Below are positions 3,109 to 43,762 of a stretch of DNA of 64,000 bases, piece by piece. The stretch's first letter is position 1; every line of letters begins with the position of its first letter. Source of the DNA: Candidatus Caccoplasma sp. (GTDB taxonomy: Bacteria; Bacteroidota; Bacteroidia; Bacteroidales; G3-4614); contig JAZNCN010000028.1 in NCBI GenBank assembly GCA_045587545.1, positions 143,425-207,424 on the forward strand, read 5' to 3'. A program made the translations under genes and the position numbers. Under the pieces are notes generated by a model. It was not told the origin of the DNA. It saw nothing but the letters and a program-made list of their open reading frames with translations, and did no database searches.

Positions 3109-4020
3109 ATGCGAATTAAACATAAACAAAAGAACTTTGATAAAGGGAAAAATAGAAGTGCTGAAACAATCGTAGAGAACACTGATAGTTTATTAAATTA
3201 CTTATTTAAAATATATTCAGACAGAAGCAAAACCACTGTCAAAAGCTGGCTTTCACATCGTCAGGTTGCTATAAACGGAAATCCGGAAACTGCGTATGAC
3301 GCTCCTTTAATGCCCGGAGACAAAGTGTTGATAAACTTTGAGAAGGGTTTTAAAGTGTTTAAAAACAATAGAATAAAAATTGTTTATGAAGATGACTATA
3401 TAATTGTTGCAAACAAAGGTTATGGATTGTTGTCTGTCTCTTCAGACAGAGTTAAAGAGAATACTGCATACCGAATTTTAAGCGACTATCTAAAAGAGGA
3501 TAATCCGTATGCAAAACTTTTTGTAATTCACCGATTAGACCGAGACACCTCTGGGTTGATAATGTATGCAAAATCAGAAGATGTTCAATTTAAACTTCAA
3601 CGTTCTTGGAATGAGATGGTCCTTGACCGACGATATGTAGCCGTAATTCATGGAGCAATTGAACCATCTGAAGGAGAAATTTCATCTTATCTTACCGAGA
3701 ATAGCGTTCACCACGTATATTCAACTACCGATAAGGAGAATGGTCAGTTTGCATTAACAAAATACAAAACATTACAAAGCAATAGTCGTTTTTCGCTTGT
3801 TGAATTGCAACTATCCACAGGACGTAAAAACCAAATAAGGGTACACATGTCGGAGAGCGGACACCCGATAGCCGGCGATAAAAGATATGGTTCTAAAGAA
3901 AATCCTCTTGGAAGATTATCTCTTCACGCATTCCGTCTTAGATTTGTACACCCAATAACCCGACAGGATATGCTGTTTGAGACTCCTTTGCCTCCGCAAT
4001 TTGTAAAGGTAACAAGGTAA
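3109..4020 (+). CDS. RluA-family 23S rRNA pseudouridine synthase with an N-terminal S4-like domain
   Basis: Catalytic motif HRLDRDTSGLIMYAK and the C-terminal GRKNQIRVH motif. Confidence 0.85.
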   Translation: MRIKHKQKNFDKGKNRSAETIVENTDSLLNYLFKIYSDRSKTTVKSWLSHRQVAINGNPETAYDAPLMPGDKVLINFEKGFKVFKNNRIKIVYEDDYIIVANKGYGLLSVSSDRVKENTAYRILSDYLKEDNPYAKLFVIHRLDRDTSGLIMYAKSEDVQFKLQRSWNEMVLDRRYVAVIHGAIEPSEGEISSYLTENSVHHVYSTTDKENGQFALTKYKTLQSNSRFSLVELQLSTGRKNQIRVHMSESGHPIAGDKRYGSKENPLGRLSLHAFRLRFVHPITRQDMLFETPLPPQFVKVTR

Positions 4021-4054
4021 TTTAGGGGTAAGAAAGTTTTACGAAAAATCCCTT

Positions 4055-6121
4055 CTATTCCGAAATAAGTTTTATAACATTGTAAGCCGGCACCATACCT
4101 AATTCACCTGCCTTGCTTAAATCGGCAATAGCCTTTTCGTTATTACCAATATAGGTATGTACCAATCCTCGATTAAAATATGCTTCAGCAAAATCGGGAT
4201 TAAGTTCTATGGCTCTATTATAATCTGCCAATGCAGCATTGAAATCTTTGCGTTCGCATCTTATATTAGCTCTATTGTAGTATGAGTATGGGAAATTGGG
4301 CGATATGGCAATAACTTTATCATAATCGCGTAAAACCATCTCATACTCAAGTGCTATTGCCTTATCGTTTAAAGCAATATTGGGTTTTGAAAGCATATTA
4401 TCTCCTATGTGAGAGCCTGTCTGTTTATCAACGTTTGTTGATGATAATGTATATTCAATACGTTTATATCTAACAACTGCACGTAAAAAATAAGCAAATA
4501 TAAAGTTATCGCCTGCCGATATAATTCTACTTAAATCCTCAATTGCTCCATTAAAATCTTGTATAAGCATAAAATCTATGGCACGCGCCATATATGGAAC
4601 TGCATTATTCGGATTTATATCTATTAAACGCGTATTGTCCGATATTGAATTAAAATGACGAACTATCTTTAGAGAGTCAAGACTCGCTTCGCGATTGGTA
4701 AGTTTTAATGAGCGTGGCAATATCCTTGCCCTATTCAAATCGTCAAGATCCTTTGAATACTTTTTGGGAAGATTTAATTGAGATGGTTCCTCATAATAGG
4801 TAAGGGTGATTTGTGGCTCAATTTTAAGTTTGTATTTATTATCTTGCACCCTACCCCTTATAGTACTCTCATAACCGGTTTTTATAGAAGTATCATCAGA
4901 GACCAAAAGTCTGTCAAATTTATTTATGCTCTTATCCGACTCGCGACGGACTTTTGTCATATCATCATAGTTTATTGAATCGCCTGACGCTCTTCGCTGT
5001 TTTGCCTCCTCTTCCAACTTCATGGCATAATCAAAATCTTTTTTACCCCCTTTCAGGTCGCCAAGTTTACGAAGAGCTTCGGAACGGGCAAAATATACCC
5101 CTGCAAAATCGGGGTACTCCTCAATAACACGAGTATAATCTTTTACCGCTTTACGGTACATTGCCAAACGGTCATAGAGAATTGCTCTGTTATATACTGC
5201 AAATATATCATCAGGTCGGATATTCAACAATTGCGAAAAATCGTCAATGGCATAATTATACTCTCCTACCTGCATACGTAATAATCCTCTGTTATAAAGA
5301 GCCAGAGTATTTGAAGGCTCTTCCTCAACCACATGATTATAGTCTGCCATTGCACCACGCAAATCGTTTGCATGATATCTCAAAACCGCTCTATTTATGT
5401 AATATGCCAAAATCTTAGGGTCAATTTTAATTGCTTTGCTAAGGTCTGAAATTGCATCGTCCTGAGAGTTTCCAAGCATAAAATTAATCATACCCCTTTG
5501 CGCATATCCATACGAAGAGTATTTATCAATATCAAGAGCTCGTTCAACATCTGACAAAGCCCCAATGGTATCGCCATTTTGAATACGATATTGACTGCGA
5601 CTTATATATGCATTATAATATCCGGGGTGACAATTTATAAGATATGCATATGTACTATCGGCGGCCTCAAATTGTTTATCCTCAACCTGAGCAATAGCCT
5701 TATTAATCAAAAATGTTTTATCCTCCGGTAAATACTCGAGCGCCTTGTTATAATCGGCAATTGCACCTTTGTTATCGCCCATATTTTGGCGAGCTACTCC
5801 TCGTACATGGTATGCTCCGATAATAAATGGATTATACTCAATACAGACCGTACAATCCTCCTCTGCCCCTTTATAATCGTCAAGGCTTAATTTGGCTGCT
5901 CCACGTAAAAAATAGGGTTCTGCCATATAAGGCTTTACCTTAATTACTTGATTAAAGTATTGTATTGCAAGTATATAATCTTCAAAATATAGGGCATTAC
6001 GACCAATATTCATAACCCTATCAGTATTCAGTTGGGCTGAAACACCGATAGGTAACAAAAGCATAATTACAATAAATAAAGCCTTTATAGCAGTTGATAT
6101 ATTGAGTATTAAATCTTTCAT
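4055..6121 (-). CDS. tetratricopeptide (TPR) repeat protein with signal peptide
   Basis: 688 aa with many 34-aa repeats of the form A..Y..AI...P....AY..RG. Confidence 0.8.
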   Translation of the reverse strand: MKDLILNISTAIKALFIVIMLLLPIGVSAQLNTDRVMNIGRNALYFEDYILAIQYFNQVIKVKPYMAEPYFLRGAAKLSLDDYKGAEEDCTVCIEYNPFIIGAYHVRGVARQNMGDNKGAIADYNKALEYLPEDKTFLINKAIAQVEDKQFEAADSTYAYLINCHPGYYNAYISRSQYRIQNGDTIGALSDVERALDIDKYSSYGYAQRGMINFMLGNSQDDAISDLSKAIKIDPKILAYYINRAVLRYHANDLRGAMADYNHVVEEEPSNTLALYNRGLLRMQVGEYNYAIDDFSQLLNIRPDDIFAVYNRAILYDRLAMYRKAVKDYTRVIEEYPDFAGVYFARSEALRKLGDLKGGKKDFDYAMKLEEEAKQRRASGDSINYDDMTKVRRESDKSINKFDRLLVSDDTSIKTGYESTIRGRVQDNKYKLKIEPQITLTYYEEPSQLNLPKKYSKDLDDLNRARILPRSLKLTNREASLDSLKIVRHFNSISDNTRLIDINPNNAVPYMARAIDFMLIQDFNGAIEDLSRIISAGDNFIFAYFLRAVVRYKRIEYTLSSTNVDKQTGSHIGDNMLSKPNIALNDKAIALEYEMVLRDYDKVIAISPNFPYSYYNRANIRCERKDFNAALADYNRAIELNPDFAEAYFNRGLVHTYIGNNEKAIADLSKAGELGMVPAYNVIKLISE

Positions 6122-6912: not shown

Positions 6913-8208
6913 ATGCAAAACAGACAACCTGCCATAAAAGATTTTGATAATCTCGAGTTTAAGATGCCCTATTTAATAAATTCCGAGGCAGGTATTCCCA
7001 TATATGTATATGAGGGTGAAAAAATAGAGGTTTGCAGAGTTGATGTAATATTCTTCTGCGGTTCGTATAACGAAGATATAATACTTACAGCACAAACTAC
7101 AGCTGAATTAATAACAGAGGCAACATTAAAGAAAAGCTCATCAGTTTTTACCGAGCTAATTGATTTTTATGGTGGGTGGATAACAAAATGTTGTGCCAAA
7201 CACTTTACTACATTTACACTGTATGTCCCTGTAAGAACATATAAAAAACTTCTCCCCCTCTTCTTTGAAGCAATATCATCTCCACGTTTCAGCAAGCGAG
7301 ATTTAGAGAGATATAAACGCCAATTAATAGAGGGAATGAAGATAAACAAAAAAAAGGTTGATGTAATCTCATCAGAGATATTCCGCAAACAACTTTTTGG
7401 ATCTCACCCTTATGGTGTTACGCCCCAACCCGATGATTGCAACGCACTTAACAACGAAATACTTAAAGCATTCCATAACAAATGGTTTTATGCTTCAAAC
7501 TGCAACGTGGTTATATCGGGAGCAGTAACAGAAGATATGGTAAATATGTTACAAAAAGAGCTGTTACGAATACCTCAAAAAGAGCATATTACACCCAATA
7601 AAATTGCTATTGACAATAACATCAGTGAAACACTCTTTGTAAAAGAGGTTGAAAATGCAATGCAAAGTTCTGTTAGGATTGGCGCAAGAGTTATTAATAA
7701 CGATAATGCCGACCACTACAAACTACAAATTGTAAACACTGCATTAGGTGGATATTTTGGTAGCCGACTAAGTAAAAATATCAGAGAAGAGAAAGGTTAT
7801 ACATACGGTATATATTCGGGGATATTGGCTTTGCCTGATGCAGCACATTTTATGATTCTATCTCAAACAGGCATAAATTTTACTAAACCATTAATAAAAG
7901 AGGCAGAAAAAGAGATTATAAGAATTAAAGAAGAGCCTATCCCCAATGACGAATTGACAAGCCTTAAAGGATATATGCTCGGCAGTTATGCAAGAATGTT
8001 TGATACACGCTTCACCCTTGCCGATGCCTTTATATCGTTATTAACAAGTTACAAATCTCTGTCGGGCAAAGAGATTGACTTCAAAGATATATTCAATAAA
8101 CGCATAAACGAGATAAAAAGCATTACAGCAGACACTATTCTTGAAACTGCACAAAAATACCTGCCTGATTACACCGATATGATAACTGTTGTTGCAGGAA
8201 AGTTTTAG
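6913..8208 (+). CDS. M16 (insulinase/pitrilysin) family peptidase-like protein
   Basis: 431 aa with an M16 C-terminal-domain-like sequence. I saw no HxxEH motif, so it may be a non-catalytic subunit. Confidence 0.6.
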   Translation: MQNRQPAIKDFDNLEFKMPYLINSEAGIPIYVYEGEKIEVCRVDVIFFCGSYNEDIILTAQTTAELITEATLKKSSSVFTELIDFYGGWITKCCAKHFTTFTLYVPVRTYKKLLPLFFEAISSPRFSKRDLERYKRQLIEGMKINKKKVDVISSEIFRKQLFGSHPYGVTPQPDDCNALNNEILKAFHNKWFYASNCNVVISGAVTEDMVNMLQKELLRIPQKEHITPNKIAIDNNISETLFVKEVENAMQSSVRIGARVINNDNADHYKLQIVNTALGGYFGSRLSKNIREEKGYTYGIYSGILALPDAAHFMILSQTGINFTKPLIKEAEKEIIRIKEEPIPNDELTSLKGYMLGSYARMFDTRFTLADAFISLLTSYKSLSGKEIDFKDIFNKRINEIKSITADTILETAQKYLPDYTDMITVVAGKF

Positions 8209-36249: not shown

Positions 36250-37368
36250 ATGGATTTTTTAAATCTAAATAAAATATCGGAACCATACCGCAAAGAACTT
36301 GTTAAAGCAGCAACAGAAGTTATAAATAGCGGGTGCTACATAAGAGGAGAAAAATGTAAAGAATTTGAAGACCTCTTATGCCGATATTTAGGTTGCAACT
36401 ATGCAGTTGGCACAGGCAATGGATTAGATGCACTGAAACTGATATTCAGAGCCTACATTGAAATGGGAGTAATGACAGAAGGAGACGAGGTGATACTCCC
36501 TGCCAATACATTTATAGCAACAATGATTGCTGTAACAGAAAACAGATTAAAACCTGTAATAGCAGATATAGATGCAACAACACTCAATCTTGACATCAAC
36601 AATATTGAGAAACTAATAACTCCACGAACCAAAGCAATAATCCCCGTACACCTGTACGGGCGATGTTGCTGGAGCAATAAACTCAAAAATATTGCTCAAA
36701 AATACAATCTAAAAATAGTAGAAGACAATGCACAAGCAATGGGAGCTAAAAGCATGGTTTGTGGATTGAAAGAGAGTTATATGTGCGGAGCTTTAGGCGA
36801 TGCTGCCAGTACAAGTTTTTACCCCGTAAAAAACCTTGGTGCATTAGGCGACGGTGGTGCTGTAACTACAAACGATGCCAAATTGGCAGAGGTAGTTAGA
36901 GCATTAAGCAACTATGGGTCAGAAGAAAAATACATACACAAATACGTTGGCATAAATAGCCGATTAGACGAAATTCAGGCAGCAATGCTATGCGTAAAAC
37001 TCAAATATCTTGACCAAGAGAACAGACGCAGAATTGAAATTGCTGAACAATACAACAAAAACATTACTAACAATAAAATAATAAAACCATTATTAGGAGA
37101 GAATGGCGAATATGTATGGCATCAGTATGTTATACGCACAGAAAATCGTAACTATTTGATGCAAAAATTAGAGGAGCAAGGTATTCCAACAATGATACAC
37201 TACCCCACTCCTTTACATAAACACAAAGCCTATAAAGAGTTTAACTCATTATATTTACCTATTGCGGAGAGATGTGCTACTGAAATTCTCAGTTTACCCA
37301 TTAACCCCGCAATGAGTAATAGTGAGGTACTAAAAGTAGCAAAAGCGGTTAATATTAGTTGTAACTAA
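36250..37368 (+). CDS. DegT/DnrJ/EryC1/StrS family sugar aminotransferase
   Basis: 372 aa with [18 protein letters not shown] and [15 protein letters not shown] (PLP lysine region). The stop codon lies inside the heptad array. Confidence 0.85.
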
Positions 37369-37408
37369 CAACTAACAACTAACAACTAACAACTAACAAC
37401 TAACAACT
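37363..37408. repeat. tandem heptanucleotide array (AACTAAC) x6 plus aact
   Basis: Counted directly: units at 37363, 37370, 37377, 37384, 37391 and 37398. Contains TAA or TAG in all six frames. Confidence 0.95.
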
Positions 37409-37418
37409 GATACCTGAC

Positions 37419-38861
37419 ATGGCAGAATCATTAAGAGGAAAAACACTGAAAGGTATGATATGGAGTTTTGCAGAGAATTTTTCTCTGCAAGGTATTCAAT
37501 TTATCATTGGTATTCTGCTTGCTCGCGTTCTTTCTCCATCGGACTACGGTATGGTTGGAATGTTAGCAATATTCACTGCCGTTTCACAAACACTTATTAA
37601 TAGTGGTTTTAGTACTGCTCTTGTCAGGAAAAACGATAGAACTCAAGCAGACCTTTCAACTACCTTCTATTTTAATATAGTTGTCGGTTTTGTATTATAC
37701 TTTGTACTATTTTTCTCAGGTCCATTAATTGCAGACTTTTATAATACCCCACTCCTCTCAGATTTGATAAAAGTTACCGCAATATCTCTGATACTTAACT
37801 CATTATGTATTGTTCAACAAGCCCTCTTTACAATAAAGATGGACTTTAAGACCCAAGCCAAAATTTCAGTTATTGGAGCATTGGTTACGGGTGCTGGAGG
37901 AATAGCAATGGCATATACAGGATTTGGCGTATGGTCTATTGTATGGCCCGGAGTATTTGGCGGAGCAGTAAGATGTATTTTGCTATGGATATGGGGTAAA
38001 TGGCGACCAACATGGGAATATTCTTGGAAATCGTTTAAAGAGTTATTTGGTTTTGGGTCAAAGCTATTGGCATCAGGACTGATTGATACCATATACAACA
38101 ATATATATCCAATTATAATCGGTAAAAAATTCTCTGCTGCTGATTTGGGACAATACACCAGAGCTGACGGATATGCAAACCTTCCAGCAACAACAGTTAC
38201 CGGAGTGTTAGGCAGGGTTACGTTCCCTTTGCTATGTCAAATACAAGATGACGATAATAGGCTACAATCAACATACCGTCAATTAATAAAACTATCGGCA
38301 TACGTTGTATTTCCCATTATGATTGGTCTTGCAGCATTAGCTAAACCGCTAATCATATTTATGATAACAGCAAAGTGGGCTGAATGCGTTCCTTATTTAC
38401 AAATACTATGCTTTAGTTTAATGTGGTACCCTATACACGCATTAAACCTTAATCTATTACAAGTTAAAGGGCGAAGTGACCTGTTTTTAAAACTCGAAAT
38501 AATTAAAAAAATTCTTGGAGTTGCAGTCTTGATTATTGCTATACCTTTTGGAATTATATGGATGTGTGTTGGACGAATATTTACCTCTATAATTTGTTTA
38601 GCAATAAATACATATTATACAGGAAGACTCATTAATGTTGGTTTTTTCAAACAGATGGGAGATTTACTACCTATATTAATCCTTTCATTATCAATGGGAG
38701 CAATAGTTATTGCTGTAAACCTATTTATTAACGGATTGTTATTACAAATAATTATCGGATTAATTACAGGATTAGTCTATTATTTATCAATATCATACAT
38801 AATTAAATCAAAAGAATTGTTATATTTGCTTTCGTTATTGAAAAAGAATAAGAGTTGTTAG
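37419..38861 (+). CDS. wzx: polysaccharide flippase (MOP/Wzx family)
   Basis: 480 aa, about 12-14 TM, with a polysaccharide-biosynthesis-protein-like N-terminus (GMIWSFAENFSLQGIQFIIGILLARVLSPSDYG). Confidence 0.8.
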   Translation: MAESLRGKTLKGMIWSFAENFSLQGIQFIIGILLARVLSPSDYGMVGMLAIFTAVSQTLINSGFSTALVRKNDRTQADLSTTFYFNIVVGFVLYFVLFFSGPLIADFYNTPLLSDLIKVTAISLILNSLCIVQQALFTIKMDFKTQAKISVIGALVTGAGGIAMAYTGFGVWSIVWPGVFGGAVRCILLWIWGKWRPTWEYSWKSFKELFGFGSKLLASGLIDTIYNNIYPIIIGKKFSAADLGQYTRADGYANLPATTVTGVLGRVTFPLLCQIQDDDNRLQSTYRQLIKLSAYVVFPIMIGLAALAKPLIIFMITAKWAECVPYLQILCFSLMWYPIHALNLNLLQVKGRSDLFLKLEIIKKILGVAVLIIAIPFGIIWMCVGRIFTSIICLAINTYYTGRLINVGFFKQMGDLLPILILSLSMGAIVIAVNLFINGLLLQIIIGLITGLVYYLSISYIIKSKELLYLLSLLKKNKSC

Positions 38862-38882
38862 TTGTTGGTTGTTAGTTGTTAG
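38855..38882. repeat. inverted copy of the heptad array: (TTGTTAG) x4, one unit ttgttgg
   Basis: ttgttag ttgttgg ttgttag ttgttag. The first unit contains the wzx stop codon (38859-38861). Confidence 0.9.
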
Positions 38883-38934
38883 ATTTAGGGAACAAACTAA
38901 TAAAAAGCATTAAATAACTAATAGTTAAAATAAT

Positions 38935-40476
38935 ATGGATAAAAATAAGACTATAACAGTTACATCTCCCCTATTACCATCATTAGAGGAGTTGATGCCA
39001 TATCTTCAAGATATTTGGGACAGAAAGTGGCTGACTAATAACGGACACTATCATCAGGAGTTAGAGAAGGCTCTTTGCGAATATCTTAAAGTGCCATATA
39101 TAAGTTTGTTTACAAACGGAACACTTCCTTTAATAACTGCACTACAAGCATTGAGAGTGACAGGAGAGGTTATTACAACTCCATATAGTTTTGTGGCAAC
39201 TACACACTCGTTATGGTGGAATGGCATAAAACCTGTTTTTGTTGATATTGATCCTGAAACTTGCAATTTGGATCCTGCTAAAATTGAGGCAGCAATAACC
39301 CCTAAAACCACAGCCATAATGCCTGTTCACTGCTACGGAAAACCTTGTGATGTTAAAGGTATTCAAGAGGTAGCAGATAAATACGGATTGAAAGTTATTT
39401 ACGATGCAGCTCACGCATTTGGGGTGGAAGTTCTCCTCTCCCCTAACCCCTCTCCAGTAGAGAGGGGAATATATGGCTATAACAGAAGAACTGGAAACCC
39501 TGATATTTATGCACTTCTTAAGGGATATGCAATAGACAATAGAAAAAATCCCACAGAGGCAGAAAATATATTATGGCAAGTTCTTCGTAATAATCAATTA
39601 GGAACTAAATGGAGAAGACAACACATGATCCTTGATTTTATTGTAGATTTTGTATGTTTAGAAAAATCATTTATTATTGAAATAGATGGAGGATACCATA
39701 ACAATCCTAAACAAAAAGAAGCAGACAAAATAAGAGATAAGATTTTAGAAGAAAAAGGATTTTATGTTTTGCGTCTAACCAACGAAGAAGTAATTTCAAA
39801 CATTGATGAAACTATTGCTATAATTAAATCACAAATACAAAACCTCCCCCTACTGGGGGGAATGAGGGGGGAGTCCATTCTCAATTTCGGAGATATGAGT
39901 ACTTTGAGTTTCCATGCGACAAAGGTATATAACACTGTTGAAGGTGGTGCATTGATAATGCACGATGAGGAGACAAAAAAACGCATCGACTATCTTAAAA
40001 ACTTTGGATTTGCCGGAGAGACAGAGGTTATTGCTCCCGGTATAAATAGTAAAATGGACGAGATTCGCTCGGCATACGGATTATTGAGTTTAAAGAAAGT
40101 TGATGACTCAATAGCTGCACGAAAAAGAGTAGCCGAGATATATCGCAGTGAGTTACGCAACATACCTGGAATACGCTTTTTTGATGATATGCCGGGAGTT
40201 AAACATAACTACTCATATTTCCCAATTTTTGTTGAGAAAGATTATGGAATGAGTCGCGATGAACTATACTTTAAGATGAAAGCGAATAACGTTCTTGGCA
40301 GACGCTATTTTTATCCATTAATAAGTACATTCTCAACTTATAGAGGATTGGAGTCGTCAGATCCCAAGAACTTACCAATAGCAACACGCATTGCCGATGA
40401 GGTTATTTGCCTACCAATGCACAATGCTTTAAGCGAAAACGATATTCAAAGAGTAATTGATTGTATAAAGAAGTAA
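38935..40476 (+). CDS. DegT-family sugar aminotransferase carrying an internal in-frame DUF559 endonuclease domain
   Basis: N-terminal part ...KVIYDAAHAFGVEV and C-terminal part GESILNFGDMSTLSFHATKVYNTVEGGALI... are aminotransferase sequence. Codons 167-312 are DUF559-like. Confidence 0.85.
   Translation: MDKNKTITVTSPLLPSLEELMPYLQDIWDRKWLTNNGHYHQELEKALCEYLKVPYISLFTNGTLPLITALQALRVTGEVITTPYSFVATTHSLWWNGIKPVFVDIDPETCNLDPAKIEAAITPKTTAIMPVHCYGKPCDVKGIQEVADKYGLKVIYDAAHAFGVEVLLSPNPSPVERGIYGYNRRTGNPDIYALLKGYAIDNRKNPTEAENILWQVLRNNQLGTKWRRQHMILDFIVDFVCLEKSFIIEIDGGYHNNPKQKEADKIRDKILEEKGFYVLRLTNEEVISNIDETIAIIKSQIQNLPLLGGMRGESILNFGDMSTLSFHATKVYNTVEGGALIMHDEETKKRIDYLKNFGFAGETEVIAPGINSKMDEIRSAYGLLSLKKVDDSIAARKRVAEIYRSELRNIPGIRFFDDMPGVKHNYSYFPIFVEKDYGMSRDELYFKMKANNVLGRRYFYPLISTFSTYRGLESSDPKNLPIATRIADEVICLPMHNALSENDIQRVIDCIKK
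39433..39870 (+). mobile_element. DUF559 (Vsr-like PD-(D/E)xK endonuclease) cassette, 438 bp, in frame, with G/C-rich hairpin termini
   Basis: Encodes NPTEAENILWQVLRNNQLGTKWRRQHMILDFIVDFVCLEKSFIIEIDGGYH...VLRLTNEEV. Terminal hairpins cccctct/agagggg (39447-39467) and tccccc/ggggga (39845-39861). The ends are imperfect inverted repeats sharing CCAGTAG. Boundaries are good to within a few bp. Confidence 0.65.
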
Positions 40477-40480
40477 AAAT

Positions 40481-41410
40481 ATGAAACATTTACTTTTTAA
40501 TACAACTCCTGTTAATAAATTAAATTATTTTTCAAATAAATTAGGAGTTAATTTATATGTAAAAAGGGATGATTTATTTTTAGAAGCAGGAGGAGGTAGT
40601 AAAGCAAGAATGTTACAATACATTTTATCCGATATAAAATCAGAAAATTATGATGTATTATTAACAGCTGGAGGTCCATGTTCAAATTTCAATAGAGCTT
40701 GTGCATTAATGTGTGCAAAAATTGGGATACCAATGCATTTAGTTGAATACACTGATAATCCAAATGAATATAAGTCTTCTCTTAATTATTATATATGCCA
40801 ATTAGCAGGAATAAAGACAACTCGATGTAAGAAATCAGAAGTTCCAGAAACTATCTCTAAAGTACTTAACCAATATCAAAGTAAAGGAGAAAAGGTTAAA
40901 TTTATATATGGTGGCGGTAAATCAATTGAAGGGATATATTCTTATTATGAAGCTGTCAAAGAATTATATACTCAGATTCAAGATATAGACCATATATTCA
41001 TTGCATGCGGAACAGGGACAACACTGAGCGGGATATGTGCAGGAGTCCAAAAATATTATCCCAATACAAAAATACACGCGATATCTACTGCTCGTAATTA
41101 TGATGCAGAGTTACCGGTATTAACAGATAATATTAAACTTCTAAATAAGTATTTAGGCACAAAATACTCATTAGACAATTTAAAATTTTATGACGAATAT
41201 ATTTGTGGAGGATATGCAAAATATAATAATTCAATAATGAATATAATAAAAGAATGTATTAGTAACGAAGGAATGATTATTGACCCGACATACTCAGGTA
41301 AAGCATTTTGGGGAATGAATAATATAATCGAATCATCTGAAACATTTAAGGATAAAAACATTCTTTTTTGGAATACAGGAGGAATCATGAATCTATTATC
41401 AGCACATTAA
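40481..41410 (+). CDS. PLP-dependent enzyme of the ACC deaminase / D-cysteine desulfhydrase family
   Basis: GGGSKARMLQYIL (compare GGNKxRKLEYL) and the fold-type II PLP pattern CGTGTTLSG. Confidence 0.65.
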   Translation: MKHLLFNTTPVNKLNYFSNKLGVNLYVKRDDLFLEAGGGSKARMLQYILSDIKSENYDVLLTAGGPCSNFNRACALMCAKIGIPMHLVEYTDNPNEYKSSLNYYICQLAGIKTTRCKKSEVPETISKVLNQYQSKGEKVKFIYGGGKSIEGIYSYYEAVKELYTQIQDIDHIFIACGTGTTLSGICAGVQKYYPNTKIHAISTARNYDAELPVLTDNIKLLNKYLGTKYSLDNLKFYDEYICGGYAKYNNSIMNIIKECISNEGMIIDPTYSGKAFWGMNNIIESSETFKDKNILFWNTGGIMNLLSAH

Positions 41411-41419
41411 ATCGTTCAA

Positions 41420-41848
41420 ATGAAAACAATAGAACACATAACAAATAAAAAAGAATTAGAAGATTACCTTAATGAAGTAGATAAAGACTTTAATACTCCA
41501 TTAAGTAATAAAATATCAATAAGCATATTTGCATCTAAATTAGTTGAATATGGTAAAGTTTTCGTAATTAAAGAAAATAAAGAAACGTTAGCTATGATAA
41601 GTTTTTATTGTAATGATACAATAACCCATAAAGCATATCTTACTATATTATCAACAAAAGAACGAGCAAGAGGGAAAGGTTATGCTCGCTTATTAATTAC
41701 CAAAATGATAAGTATCTGTAAAGAGAATAAAATGCAACACATATATTGTGATTCCGTAAATCCTATTGCAATATCATTATATAAATCATTTGGGTTTACT
41801 GAATACAAAAAAGAAGAAAATAAAAGTTATTTAGAACTAAAATTATAA
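41420..41848 (+). CDS. GNAT family N-acetyltransferase
   Basis: 142 aa with the acetyl-CoA motif ERARGKGYARLLI. Confidence 0.75.
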   Translation: MKTIEHITNKKELEDYLNEVDKDFNTPLSNKISISIFASKLVEYGKVFVIKENKETLAMISFYCNDTITHKAYLTILSTKERARGKGYARLLITKMISICKENKMQHIYCDSVNPIAISLYKSFGFTEYKKEENKSYLELKL

Positions 41849-41858
41849 AATAAGCGAT

Positions 41859-42794
41859 ATGAATATATTGGTAACAGCAATTGGTTCATTTTCGGCAGAT
41901 TGTGTAATAAAAACATTAAAAAGGAAAAATCACAACGTAGTCGGATGTGATATATATCCTACCATTTGGCATGCTATATCAAAAGAGTGTGACAAAACAT
42001 ATCAAGTACCTTATGCTATAGATAAAGAATATGTAAATTTTTTATGTAGTATATGTATCAATGAAAAAATAGATTGTATAATACCCCTAACAGACTTGGA
42101 AATTGATGTTCTAAATAACAACAGAAAGAGTTTCAAAGATATTGGTGTTAACGTATATATACAATCTGAATCATGTTTAAATATTGCAAGAGATAAGTAT
42201 GCAATGTATAATATATTTAAAGATGATATAATTGTAAACGTACCAAATTCTATTTCTTCATCAAACCTTACTACAAACTTTCCATTACCCGCAATAGCAA
42301 AACCAATAAACGGTAGAAGTAGTGAAGGATTAAAAATAATTGAAAACATAAAAGAACTTGAACAATTAATTAATATACCAAAGTATATTATTCAAGAAAA
42401 GATATCTGGCTCTGTAATAACAGTGGATTACGTCAGAGACAAGCATGGTAATGATTTTGCTATTCCTCGAGAAGAATTATTAAGGACGAAGAATGGAGCA
42501 GGAACAACAATAAAGATCATTAATAATAAAGAACTAAATGAAACAGTCTCATATATAGGTAATAAGTTAAATGTAGTTGGATGTGTTAATATGGAATTTA
42601 TTCACAACAATGACAAATTTTATCTAATAGACATAAATCCAAGATTCTCTGCGGGAGTGGCATTCAGTAACTTTATTGGATTTGATATGATTACTAGTCA
42701 TATAAATTCTTTTATAGGGAAGGAAATATGCAATAAAATAGAAATTATTGAGCAAATAATTTGTAAACGATATTACGAAGAAAAATTAGATTAA
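41859..42794 (+). CDS. ATP-grasp domain protein
   Basis: 311 aa with AKPINGRSSEGLKII...IIQEKISG...NMEFI...YLIDINPRFS (ATP-grasp signature). Confidence 0.75.
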   Translation: MNILVTAIGSFSADCVIKTLKRKNHNVVGCDIYPTIWHAISKECDKTYQVPYAIDKEYVNFLCSICINEKIDCIIPLTDLEIDVLNNNRKSFKDIGVNVYIQSESCLNIARDKYAMYNIFKDDIIVNVPNSISSSNLTTNFPLPAIAKPINGRSSEGLKIIENIKELEQLINIPKYIIQEKISGSVITVDYVRDKHGNDFAIPREELLRTKNGAGTTIKIINNKELNETVSYIGNKLNVVGCVNMEFIHNNDKFYLIDINPRFSAGVAFSNFIGFDMITSHINSFIGKEICNKIEIIEQIICKRYYEEKLD

Positions 42795-42802
42795 TATAAA
42801 TA

Positions 42803-43762
42803 ATGTCAGAAAAAACACCATTAGTAAGCGTATTAACATTAGCATATAACCATGCTCCATATATAAGAGAGTGTTTGGACGGAATTCTTATGCAAAAAAC
42901 AAATTTTGCATTTGAATTACTAATTCATGATGATGCCTCAACCGATGGCACTGCCGATATAATTAGAGAATACGAAGCAAAATACCCTGATATAGTAAAG
43001 CCCATATACCAAACCGAAAATCAATATAGTAAAGGAGTGAAAATAACAATAACATATCAGTTCCCCAGAGTAAAGGGTAAGTATATTGCTTTATGCGAAG
43101 GTGATGATTATTGGACTGACCCTCTAAAACTCCAAAAACAAGTTGATTTTATGGAGGCAAATCCTGATTATGGATTGTGTTATACAAGCATAAATATGCT
43201 TCATTTGGATAAATCATTTTCTCATGAATATAATTTCTCAAACGATTTTGAGCCCACAATAAAAGAATTAATGATTAGTAATCCTATATGTACTTTAACA
43301 ACTCTATTTAGAAAAGATTTATATGCCCAATATATTGAAGAGGTAGAACCCCAAAATCAAAATTGGAAGATGGGTGATTATCCAATATGGATATGGTTCT
43401 CGCTACATTTAAAAATAAAATACCTAAGTGATATCACTGGTGTATATAGGAGAACAATAGGCAGTGCAAGTAATAGCAGTGATAAAAACAAACAATTATC
43501 ATTTCTATTAAATGTTATTGATATTAAAACATTCTTTAAAGAGAAATATGATATATGTAATTCTCTCTATTTATATGGCACAGCTAATACATATACTCAA
43601 TGCCGAGGAATTGCAATTGATATTGGCAGGTGGGATATTATAAAAAAAGAGATTAAAACGGCAAGACTCCTAAAAAATTGGAAAAGAGTTATAAAACTTA
43701 AAGTTTTATATATAGCCAGATATAATAAACGTATACTAAATTTTATAAATAGCCAAATATGA
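42803..43762 (+). CDS. glycosyltransferase family 2
   Basis: VSVLTLAYNHAPYIRECLDGILMQ...LIHDDASTDGT...CEGDDYW. Confidence 0.85.
   Translation: MSEKTPLVSVLTLAYNHAPYIRECLDGILMQKTNFAFELLIHDDASTDGTADIIREYEAKYPDIVKPIYQTENQYSKGVKITITYQFPRVKGKYIALCEGDDYWTDPLKLQKQVDFMEANPDYGLCYTSINMLHLDKSFSHEYNFSNDFEPTIKELMISNPICTLTTLFRKDLYAQYIEEVEPQNQNWKMGDYPIWIWFSLHLKIKYLSDITGVYRRTIGSASNSSDKNKQLSFLLNVIDIKTFFKEKYDICNSLYLYGTANTYTQCRGIAIDIGRWDIIKKEIKTARLLKNWKRVIKLKVLYIARYNKRILNFINSQI

Follow-up and report, generated by a model that had tools for sequence, protein, structure and literature searches.

A nuclease cassette inside an aminotransferase gene

The window analyzed here, a stretch of 64,000 nucleotides (nt) from Candidatus Caccoplasma sp. 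(assembly GCA_045587545.1, contig JAZNCN010000028.1, positions 143,425 to 207,424), contains an open reading frame (ORF) of 513 amino acids (aa) in which a sugar aminotransferase is split by a DUF559 nuclease. The ORF (38935..40476; this and all features of the split gene lie on the + strand) is one uninterrupted frame, and the DegT-family aminotransferase is divided between its pyridoxal phosphate (PLP) motifs. The 5' part of the host gene (38935..39432, codons 1-166) encodes a DegT/DnrJ/EryC1-family sugar aminotransferase up to ...YDAAHAFGVEV, with the best PF01041 stretch at aa 18-165. The 3' part (39874..40476) extends from SILNFGDMSTLSFHATK, the Schiff-base lysine motif, to the stop codon, with the host resuming after the insert as (GE)SILNFGDMSTLSFHATK, and carries the second PF01041 stretch and a match to TIGR04427 (aa 311-512). 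In a Pfam scan of the whole protein, DegT_DnrJ_EryC1 was matched in these two stretches (E 9e-96), with PF04480, the DUF559 family, at aa 198-301 between them (E 5.8e-29; 100.6 bits against a gathering score of 20.6; model positions 6-108 of 109), and an NCBIfam scan agreed, again placing a DUF559 block between two aminotransferase parts. Profile searches thus bear out the nested architecture proposed in a preliminary description of this DNA made from its letters alone. That description was also right that the block is in frame, a multiple of three and free of stop codons, but placed its end at 39870 and counted 146 codons; we find a cassette of 441 nt and 147 codons at 39433..39873.

The boundaries of the cassette are set by an imperfect inverted repeat. 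Its left copy (39433..39467) consists of a C-rich leader, CTCCTCTCCCCTAA (39433-39446), and the hairpin CCCCTCTC-cagta-GAGAGGGG (39447-39467), and is translated as LLSPNPSPVERG. Its right copy (39842..39873) consists of the hairpin TCCCCC-tactg-GGGGGA (39845-39861) and a G-rich trailer, ATGAGGGGGGAG (39862-39873), and is translated as LPLLGGMRGE; read as the reverse complement it becomes CTCCCCCCTCATT plus hairpin, to be compared with CTCCTCTCCCCTAA plus hairpin on the left. The junction residues of the insert are V/LLSP and RGE/S. The right boundary is uncertain by at most 6 nt, because the last six bases, GGGGAG (Gly-Glu), match the Gly-Glu of the empty site GVE[IV]-NGE-S described below. 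The left hairpin has an 8-base-pair (bp) stem (-9.7 kcal/mol; z = -2.4 versus shuffles). Each hairpin occurs once in the window (0/100 shuffles matched), whose GC content is 34%, and the two are its sole pyrimidine-arm GC hairpins; tblastn and hairpin scans of the 64 kb found neither the nuclease nor the ends a second time. The hairpins and their pairing as imperfect terminal inverted repeats had been described correctly. Their presentation as GC-rich peculiarities holds within the window, but they are not special to this locus, as they belong to a large family of inverted repeats of ~32 nt.

Between the repeats lie a spacer and N-terminal helix (..NPDIYALLKGYAIDNRK; 39468..39525) and then the DUF559, or Vsr-like (EDxHD-type), PD-(D/E)XK core (39526..39837; aa 198-301). 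Alignment A1, of the cassette nuclease with stand-alone DUF559 relatives, gives the consensus Y.LLKE.A..NRKNPT for the helix, which is conserved in those relatives also and is modeled by AlphaFold at aa 189-204. Only ~30 aa, this one helix, precede the core, so that there is no additional N-terminal DNA-binding domain. Every family-invariant residue is present (W48, Q63, D72, E83, D85, G86, H89, D98, R114, N117 and E118 of alignment A1, in insert numbering), including the E-D-H-D residues of the I-Bth0305I homing-endonuclease family (E83, D85, H89 and D98). The A1 profile matches PDB 3hrl (E 3e-30) and also PDB 3r3p, the catalytic C-terminal domain of I-Bth0305I (E 1e-6). The ratio of nonsynonymous to synonymous substitution rates (dN/dS), computed between the window and locus L003, is 0.16 for the DUF559 core versus 0.03-0.05 for the host halves. 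On these comparisons, the nuclease is under purifying selection, looks functional and is a member of a homing-type family. In the AlphaFold model (mean predicted local distance difference test score 73), the nuclease is folded (aa 190-303) and the linkers (aa 160-190 and 305-336) are of low confidence, a picture that fits a tethered extra domain.

Filled and empty alleles at the same codon

With the full protein as query, a search brought up ~48 clusters (507-557 aa), each with DUF559 at one point after AAHAFGVE[VILCS], together with many homologs of 369-377 aa that lack the insert. The filled clusters come from ENA, JGI, NCBI and Logan assemblies, and loci L003, L090 and L095 are filled as well. 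As the preliminary description had anticipated, empty sites do occur in close relatives: their canonical form is GVE[IV]-NGE-S[IV]LN, and alleles whose host part is 98% identical read GVEI-NGE-SVLN. At the DNA level, the empty allele of L007 reads GTGGAA-ATAAATGGAGAA-AGT (E-I-NGE-S) where the window has the cassette, and empty-site DNA contains ...GCATTTGGGGTGGAAATAAATGGAGAAAGTGTG... The cassette is missing at exactly the point of the window insertion in L007, L001, L002 and L008. The 5' part of the host gene is 94-96% identical in nucleotides to the empty alleles L001, L007 and L008 and the 3' part 93.5-96%, the host halves are 98-99% identical to empty alleles in amino acids, and these loci share the upstream gene order. 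The loci nearest to the window are Bacteroidales metagenome contigs.

Some of the empty alleles are not entirely clean. The right-hand 26-30 nt of the cassette are left, without the nuclease, in the otherwise empty L001 and L002 (...CCCATTGGGGGGAATGAGGGGGGAG); the remnant of L001 reads ATAAACCCATTGGGGGGAATGAGGGGGGAG, that of L002 resembles it, and in L008 the sequence has undergone AT decay. From their sequence, these right-end remnants may be read as deletion footprints. In two filled homologs (P0145 and P0158), we observed 2-3 tandem copies of a 39-nt left-end unit, translated as LTPxPSPxERGES repeats; the left-end unit can amplify by multiples of 13 codons.

Cassette history and host history

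Host and nuclease-core identities correlate only weakly over 48 filled alleles (r = 0.36), and three cases are notable. P0145 and P0182 differ at ~5 host residues, and the cassettes that they carry at the same codon are 42% identical, with different ends. Conversely, identity between P0161 and P0169 is 79.7% for the host part but 97.5% for the cassette. P0121 has a cassette 100% identical to that of the window, lying within an identical tract (aa 109-334) beyond which the outer host flanks differ; such a tract would be the expected pattern of co-conversion. DegT cassettes therefore show presence/absence polymorphism at one site as well as conflicting host and element phylogenies, and the gain, loss and exchange of cassettes at a single site have evidently, on this comparison, proceeded apart from the history of the host gene. 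We keep only the clear-cut pairs for this argument: the lower amino acid identity of the insert in the pair formed by the window and L003, at first taken as proof of transfer, was withdrawn, since synonymous divergence (dS) is equal in host and cassette.

The gene lies in a cluster (36250-43762) for the biosynthesis of an O-antigen or capsule polysaccharide, with a second DegT aminotransferase, a flippase, a PLP enzyme, a GNAT protein, an ATP-grasp protein and a GT2 glycosyltransferase. Downstream of the split gene, the otherwise syntenic L001, L002 and L003 have different genes, and the polysaccharide locus is therefore mosaic. The AT-rich spacer directly upstream of the split gene contains a run of GTTGTTA/GTTGGTT-like heptamers (38848-38890).

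Cassettes in many genes of Bacteroidota

An exhaustive phmmer search of 1.84 billion representatives gave 21,065 matches at E <= 1e-3; we relied on this run rather than on the counts of a word-indexed protein search, which are not exhaustive. Among the best 150 of the 21,065 clusters, 49 have at least 70 aa of other protein on both sides of the nuclease, 19 on the N-terminal side only and 14 on the C-terminal side only, and 68 consist of the nuclease alone. Pfam confirmed nesting in LeuRS, IleRS, RecQ, UvrB, RecJ, Tgt, SpoIID, a PP2C phosphatase and a CapF-like epimerase-cupin, and also in a distant DegT paralog, at the same structural position; ValRS, RecG and MetH are further hosts; in all, functionally unrelated hosts number more than 20. 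LeuRS and IleRS are essential enzymes, which means that the filled genes have to be functional. In RecG, the insertion has been conserved in ~10 Flavobacteriaceae genomes.

A scan of one genome per species yielded more than 594 loci, and we analyzed the reading frame in the best 80. Nearly all of these are from Bacteroidota, cultured Aequorivita, Flavobacterium, Wocania, Winogradskyella, Pedobacter and Daejeonella among them, and nested cassettes are found in the cultured isolates Aequorivita todarodis, Flavobacterium difficile, Wocania arenilitoris and Pedobacter miscanthi. In 50 of the 80 loci, the nuclease frame is open on both sides (at least 80 codons upstream and at least 60 downstream), and 4 more lie at a contig end or fall narrowly under the threshold. 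Consequently, at least 54 of the 58 intragenic copies are read through in frame (P ~1e-21 versus 1/3). The preliminary description had asked whether other copies exist and are always in frame: they exist in dozens of host genes, but there is an exception, L006. Locus L005, in which the cassette lies inside the activation domain of MetH, was left out of the frame analysis; it comes from a 3x long-read assembly full of frameshifts, and the gene is broken into more than 9 ORFs by these errors. Assemblies as rich in errors as that of L005 would hide in-frame nesting. Shortly downstream of the DUF559 cassettes of L004 and L006, two unrelated polysaccharide loci, we also noted ORFs of 123-132 aa with a PDDEXK_3 domain (PF13366; 3642-4013 and 3085-3483, respectively), which may represent another small selfish nuclease family.

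Cassette lineages mostly keep to one host gene and site. The nearest-neighbor cassette lies in the same host gene for RecG in 10/10 cases, IleRS in 5/5, MetH-b in 4/4, LeuRS in 9/12 and DegT in 47/48. Host jumps are occasional; SpoIID and IleRS cassettes, for example, are 64% identical.

Terminal repeats, restart modules and miniature copies

Nested and stand-alone copies share their ends. The left end is a C-rich leader (typically gcctcaccccaa) followed by a perfect GC hairpin of 6-10 bp, and the right end is the reverse complement of this layout, giving inverted repeats of ~32 nt. Stem sequences vary between cassettes, yet the two ends of one cassette resemble each other: the mean identity of a left end to its own reverse-complemented right end is 0.81, versus 0.65 between cassettes (n = 54), and the own right end is the best partner of the left end in 24 of the 54. 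The loops of the two hairpins are reverse-complementary (e.g., cgac/gtcg and gtg/cac) rather than identical, which ruled out an origin of the ends as a direct duplication of one palindromic target. The hairpin is found in all three reading phases (13/11/10), and therefore it is the DNA that is conserved rather than the peptide. The 'linkers' rich in Pro, Gly, Ser, Glu and Arg are the translation of the ends in whichever frame applies.

DUF559 proteins had been characterized as normally encoded by free-standing genes. Nearly half of the best clusters do stand alone, as given above, but these 'free-standing' copies also sit within genes, either right at the 5' end or where two genes of an operon meet, and keep their own stop codon. 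In most of them, the host gene begins anew at an ATG that coincides with this stop or slightly precedes it. An ATGA overlap of host start and nuclease stop is present in L018, L040, L053, L054, L077 and L087; the host ATG begins 7 nt before the end of the stop in L049 and L058, and is found 31-128 nt downstream of the stop in L025, L075 and L079. The restarted host proteins (ArgC, ArgB, LeuC, AsnS, FolD, KorB and others) begin with a short leader and the translated right end. At L018, the cassette (3936-4418) separates two neighboring genes of a 2-oxoacid:ferredoxin oxidoreductase-like operon; the left repeat contains the end of the upstream ORF (...SPLLTSPLGEE and stop), and the downstream ORF begins at the ATGA overlap and continues through the right repeat.

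The ends also occur without the nuclease. Miniatures of ~130-145 nt with cassette-type inverted repeats are present as near-identical pairs at unrelated positions in L015 (~5176-5305 and ~7599-7728, both inside long ORFs) and L043 (4937-5077 and 5637-5777, at gene junctions and carrying a stop and an ATG restart leader). These nuclease-less elements have, on the evidence of such pairs, recently copied themselves to new sites. Several recent copies in one genome are thus seen for miniatures, within these single loci, and the full cassette is present once in the window. The exact left hairpin of the window, with a gcctcacccc-type leader, is a solo unit in most of 14 metagenome contigs, and in two of the 14 it sits in DegT, at the same site. 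At L096 (8620-8640), L097 (1109-1129) and L100 (1333-1353), solo copies of this exact hairpin with a gcctc(a/t)cccc leader precede a run of T in AT-rich intergenic DNA and resemble intrinsic terminators.

A proposed selfish cassette tolerated by translation

The family cassette as we reconstruct it from sequence consists of inverted repeats of ~32 nt flanking a single gene for a DUF559, Vsr-like EDxHD nuclease of ~120 aa, and such cassettes evidently live inside protein-coding genes without destroying them. We propose that 39433..39873 is probably one copy of a selfish, homing-type cassette family of Bacteroidota that is tolerated by translation rather than by splicing. Here and in most relatives, the length divisible by three, the lack of a stop codon and the position at a surface turn imply that the ribosome reads through the cassette, and the predicted product would be, in order, host N-part, linker, nuclease domain, linker and host C-part. 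The nuclease would cut an unoccupied allele, and repair from an occupied allele would carry the cassette over along with part of the adjoining host sequence. The inverted repeats would act at the DNA level, either as binding sites of the nuclease or as cruciforms or hairpins, and would serve rare moves to new sites as well as excision; their peptide products would be no more than tolerated linkers. The suggestion in the preliminary description of a discrete mobile insertion, possibly a new homing or selfish element, thus gains support from empty sites, discordant histories and recurrence.

Several observations weigh against this proposal. The evidence is comparative throughout. By eye, we saw no target-site duplication at the window copy, around cassettes with clean boundaries or around the duplicated miniatures, and no common target motif among the cassettes compared. 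Homing endonucleases have no need of inverted repeats, so pure homing does not account for ends that co-vary, and these point to some transposon-like or structure-dependent step. A nuclease of ~110 aa with a short N-terminal helix is small for the recognition of a long specific site; I-Bth0305I has an extra DNA-binding domain. The window copy itself is not a model specimen: the identity between its ends is only ~0.69, so that they are rather decayed, and its right hairpin (5-6 bp) is by itself no better than shuffles (z = 0.0). With an intact nuclease but diverged ends, it may therefore be an aging resident. At L006, the host sequence that follows the cassette is out of frame. For the window and L003, dS is ~1.0 and about equal in host and cassette, hence part of the diversity of DegT cassettes reflects plain vertical co-descent, and the greater amino acid divergence of inserts does not on its own point to transfer. 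The swapping of cassettes could be ordinary homologous recombination among alleles of the polysaccharide locus, without any action of the nuclease. Finally, the segment with the catalytic lysine is poorly predicted in the AlphaFold model, which is of moderate quality, and the activity of the host enzyme is therefore not assured.

The main rival to a homing cassette is a true transposon, whose DUF559 nuclease would recognize both inverted repeats, perhaps as hairpins or cruciforms, and would excise and reinsert the element and its miniatures anywhere, the in-frame copies being the survivors of selection and homing playing no part. Much of what we described for the ends would follow directly: they co-vary, with reverse-complementary loops, DUF559-less miniatures with the same ends are near-identical at unrelated sites, intergenic DNA contains scattered solo end units, a wide range of host genes is occupied, and the out-of-frame copy at L006 is in a probably dispensable gene. 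However, that no target-site duplication was seen by eye speaks against a transposon too, and the cassette encodes no known strand-transfer protein (DDE, HUH, or serine/tyrosine recombinase), DUF559 being its sole domain. To our knowledge, a PD-(D/E)XK nuclease alone does not transpose DNA; TnsA needs TnsB. Moreover, cassette lineages hold strongly to a single gene and a single codon, and random insertion followed by selection poorly explains why two unrelated cassette families occupy the exact same DegT codon in near-identical hosts. We regard a pure transposon as unlikely on balance, while keeping it in serious consideration.

Other explanations fare much worse. Had the nuclease been recruited for a host function (e.g., defense or repair tethered to an enzyme) and been inherited vertically since, purifying selection on its core, the equal dS of host and insert between the window and L003, and the retention of the RecG insertion in ~10 Flavobacteriaceae genomes would all be natural. 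Such a domesticated fusion is nonetheless very improbable, given that presence and absence vary among alleles 98-99% identical, that cassettes are replaced at one site, that the same type of cassette recurs in more than 20 functionally unrelated hosts, that inverted-repeat ends, footprints and miniatures exist, and that stand-alone versions have identical ends; the aminotransferase-nuclease fusion with a new function that had been offered as an alternative is accordingly not supported. We give equally little credence to the removal of the block after transcription or translation, as an intron-like RNA closed by pairing of its ends or as a new protein-splicing element. Being complementary, the leader and trailer could pair into a stem that encloses the insert, and protein splicing would also fit the in-frame requirement, but an RNA intron has no need of the strong bias toward in-frame, stop-free inserts. 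An intron was rejected on the Rfam scan of 38800-40600, in which no intron or other family was significant and permissive filters gave two chance-level matches only; we know of no bacterial ligation pathway for an mRNA cut at such stems. An intein was rejected because Pfam detects no Hint or intein domain (no match at E < 0.01) and junction residues differ from homolog to homolog, with S, T, I, A, E or V following the insert and no His-Asn; the hallmarks of inteins are indeed missing, as had been remarked. The chance that the window contig is misassembled or chimeric is practically negligible. The same filled architecture is found in ~48 independent protein clusters from four assembly sources and at L003, L090 and L095, with analogous nesting in cultured isolates, and this independent recurrence refutes an artifact. 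None of the three outcomes that would have refuted the preliminary description was observed: PF04480 matches significantly, and the insert is neither a fixed fusion nor a product of assembly. Nor does the cassette seem to be phage-borne, as only two weak matches (33-35% identity) were obtained among 50,697 phage records.

Returning to the homing cassette, a more ambitious claim is that the family is a hitherto unrecognized class of mobile elements in bacteria, in effect a 'spliceless intein' whose ends resemble those of transposons. Its sole mobility protein would be the EDxHD nuclease of ~120 aa, driving both the homing of cassettes and the spread of miniatures, and it would have evolved devices for life in coding sequence: ends that can be read in any frame, a number of nucleotides that is a multiple of three, and, at or near the stop, an ATG from which the host gene restarts. 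We consider the case for this wider claim to be evenly balanced.

Implications

Selfish DNA would have a third way of residing in essential genes, beside RNA splicing and protein splicing, namely to be translated and tolerated. If this is true, thousands of housekeeping proteins of Bacteroidota, including LeuRS, IleRS, RecG and MetH, carry an active nuclease domain, and DUF559, a large family of unknown function, gains a role. It would also explain many inserts of 120-150 aa and P/G-rich 'linkers' in Bacteroidota enzymes that confuse annotation and orthology calls. The cassettes would provide a natural catalog of permissive loops in aminoacyl-tRNA synthetases, helicases and PLP enzymes that is useful for protein engineering, and possibly genetic tools for Bacteroidota, in the form of small site-specific nucleases and portable stop/restart modules. 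For strain typing, caution is advisable, in that variation of capsule and O-antigen loci in gut and rumen Bacteroidales includes cassette turnover.

Comparison with known systems

The preliminary description knew of no earlier account of translated DUF559 cassettes, and our search of the open-access literature and preprints, with subscription journals outside its scope, found no description of DUF559 cassettes nested in genes; older papers report isolated fusions only, such as a C-terminal DUF559 on a SPOUT methyltransferase. Stand-alone members of the same Pfam family, E. coli YcjD and the N. gonorrhoeae protein of 3HRL, are annotated as isolated genes without an assigned function, and the literature searched describes no mobile context, repeats or nesting for them.

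The closest enzymatic relatives are the EDxHD, Vsr-like homing endonucleases, a family originally predicted on the basis of 'fractured genes' (Dassa et al. 2009, PMC2677866) and whose prototype, the multidomain I-Bth0305I, has been characterized experimentally (Taylor et al. 2011, PMC3239194). They share with the cassette nuclease a homologous catalytic fold with the E-D-H-D residues, a location inside conserved housekeeping or DNA-metabolism genes, and site-specific lineages. However, they reside in group I introns, between the halves of split inteins or in a gene broken into two ORFs, and have an extra DNA-binding domain and a footprint of ~60 bp, whereas the cassette has no intron, intein or gene break, is an internal host-protein domain of ~120 aa and is bounded by inverted repeats. 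Inteins are likewise selfish in-frame inserts at conserved sites of essential proteins, often with a homing nuclease, and show presence/absence polymorphism and horizontal transfer from allele to allele; the cassette differs in having no Hint domain, junction nucleophiles or His-Asn, and the insert apparently stays in the mature protein. From group I and group II introns it differs in that no ribozyme structure was found by Rfam in 38800-40600.

Fungal mitochondrial rps3 reportedly contains in-frame LAGLIDADG endonuclease genes, a finding credited to Sethuraman and coworkers in 2009, in which a homing-endonuclease gene is likewise fused directly into coding sequence without an intron or intein. 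That system differs in its nuclease family, its organellar setting and its single host gene, and has no inverted repeats, miniatures or stop/restart module. Inverted-repeat transposons and miniature inverted-repeat transposable elements resemble the cassettes in their terminal inverted repeats (~32 nt in our 54 cassettes), which here enclose no transposase of a known class (DDE, HUH, Ser/Tyr recombinase). The Rickettsia palindromic elements (RPE) that Ogata and colleagues are said to have described in 2000 are reportedly 100-150 bp long, encode nothing, have no known mobilizing enzyme and are confined to Rickettsia. They are translated in frame within host ORFs, and the miniature derivatives of the cassette behave likewise; the cassette itself, with 441 nt and its own nuclease gene, is found in Bacteroidota, and only the miniatures resemble RPEs. 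In the repetitive extragenic palindrome (REP)/RAYT systems (REPINs, or 'REPtrons', associated with the names of Nunvar in 2010 and of Bertels and Rainey in 2011), RAYT is said to be an HUH Y1 transposase and REPs to be extragenic. There, too, a single small gene lies between inverted GC-rich hairpins, which are also dispersed as solo units and inverted pairs, but the enzyme of the cassette is a PD-(D/E)XK nuclease (DUF559, not Y1_Tnp), and its elements are mostly within coding sequence. The parts are therefore familiar, their combination departs from the defining features of each known family, and for this reason we rate the cassette as a candidate for a new kind of element.

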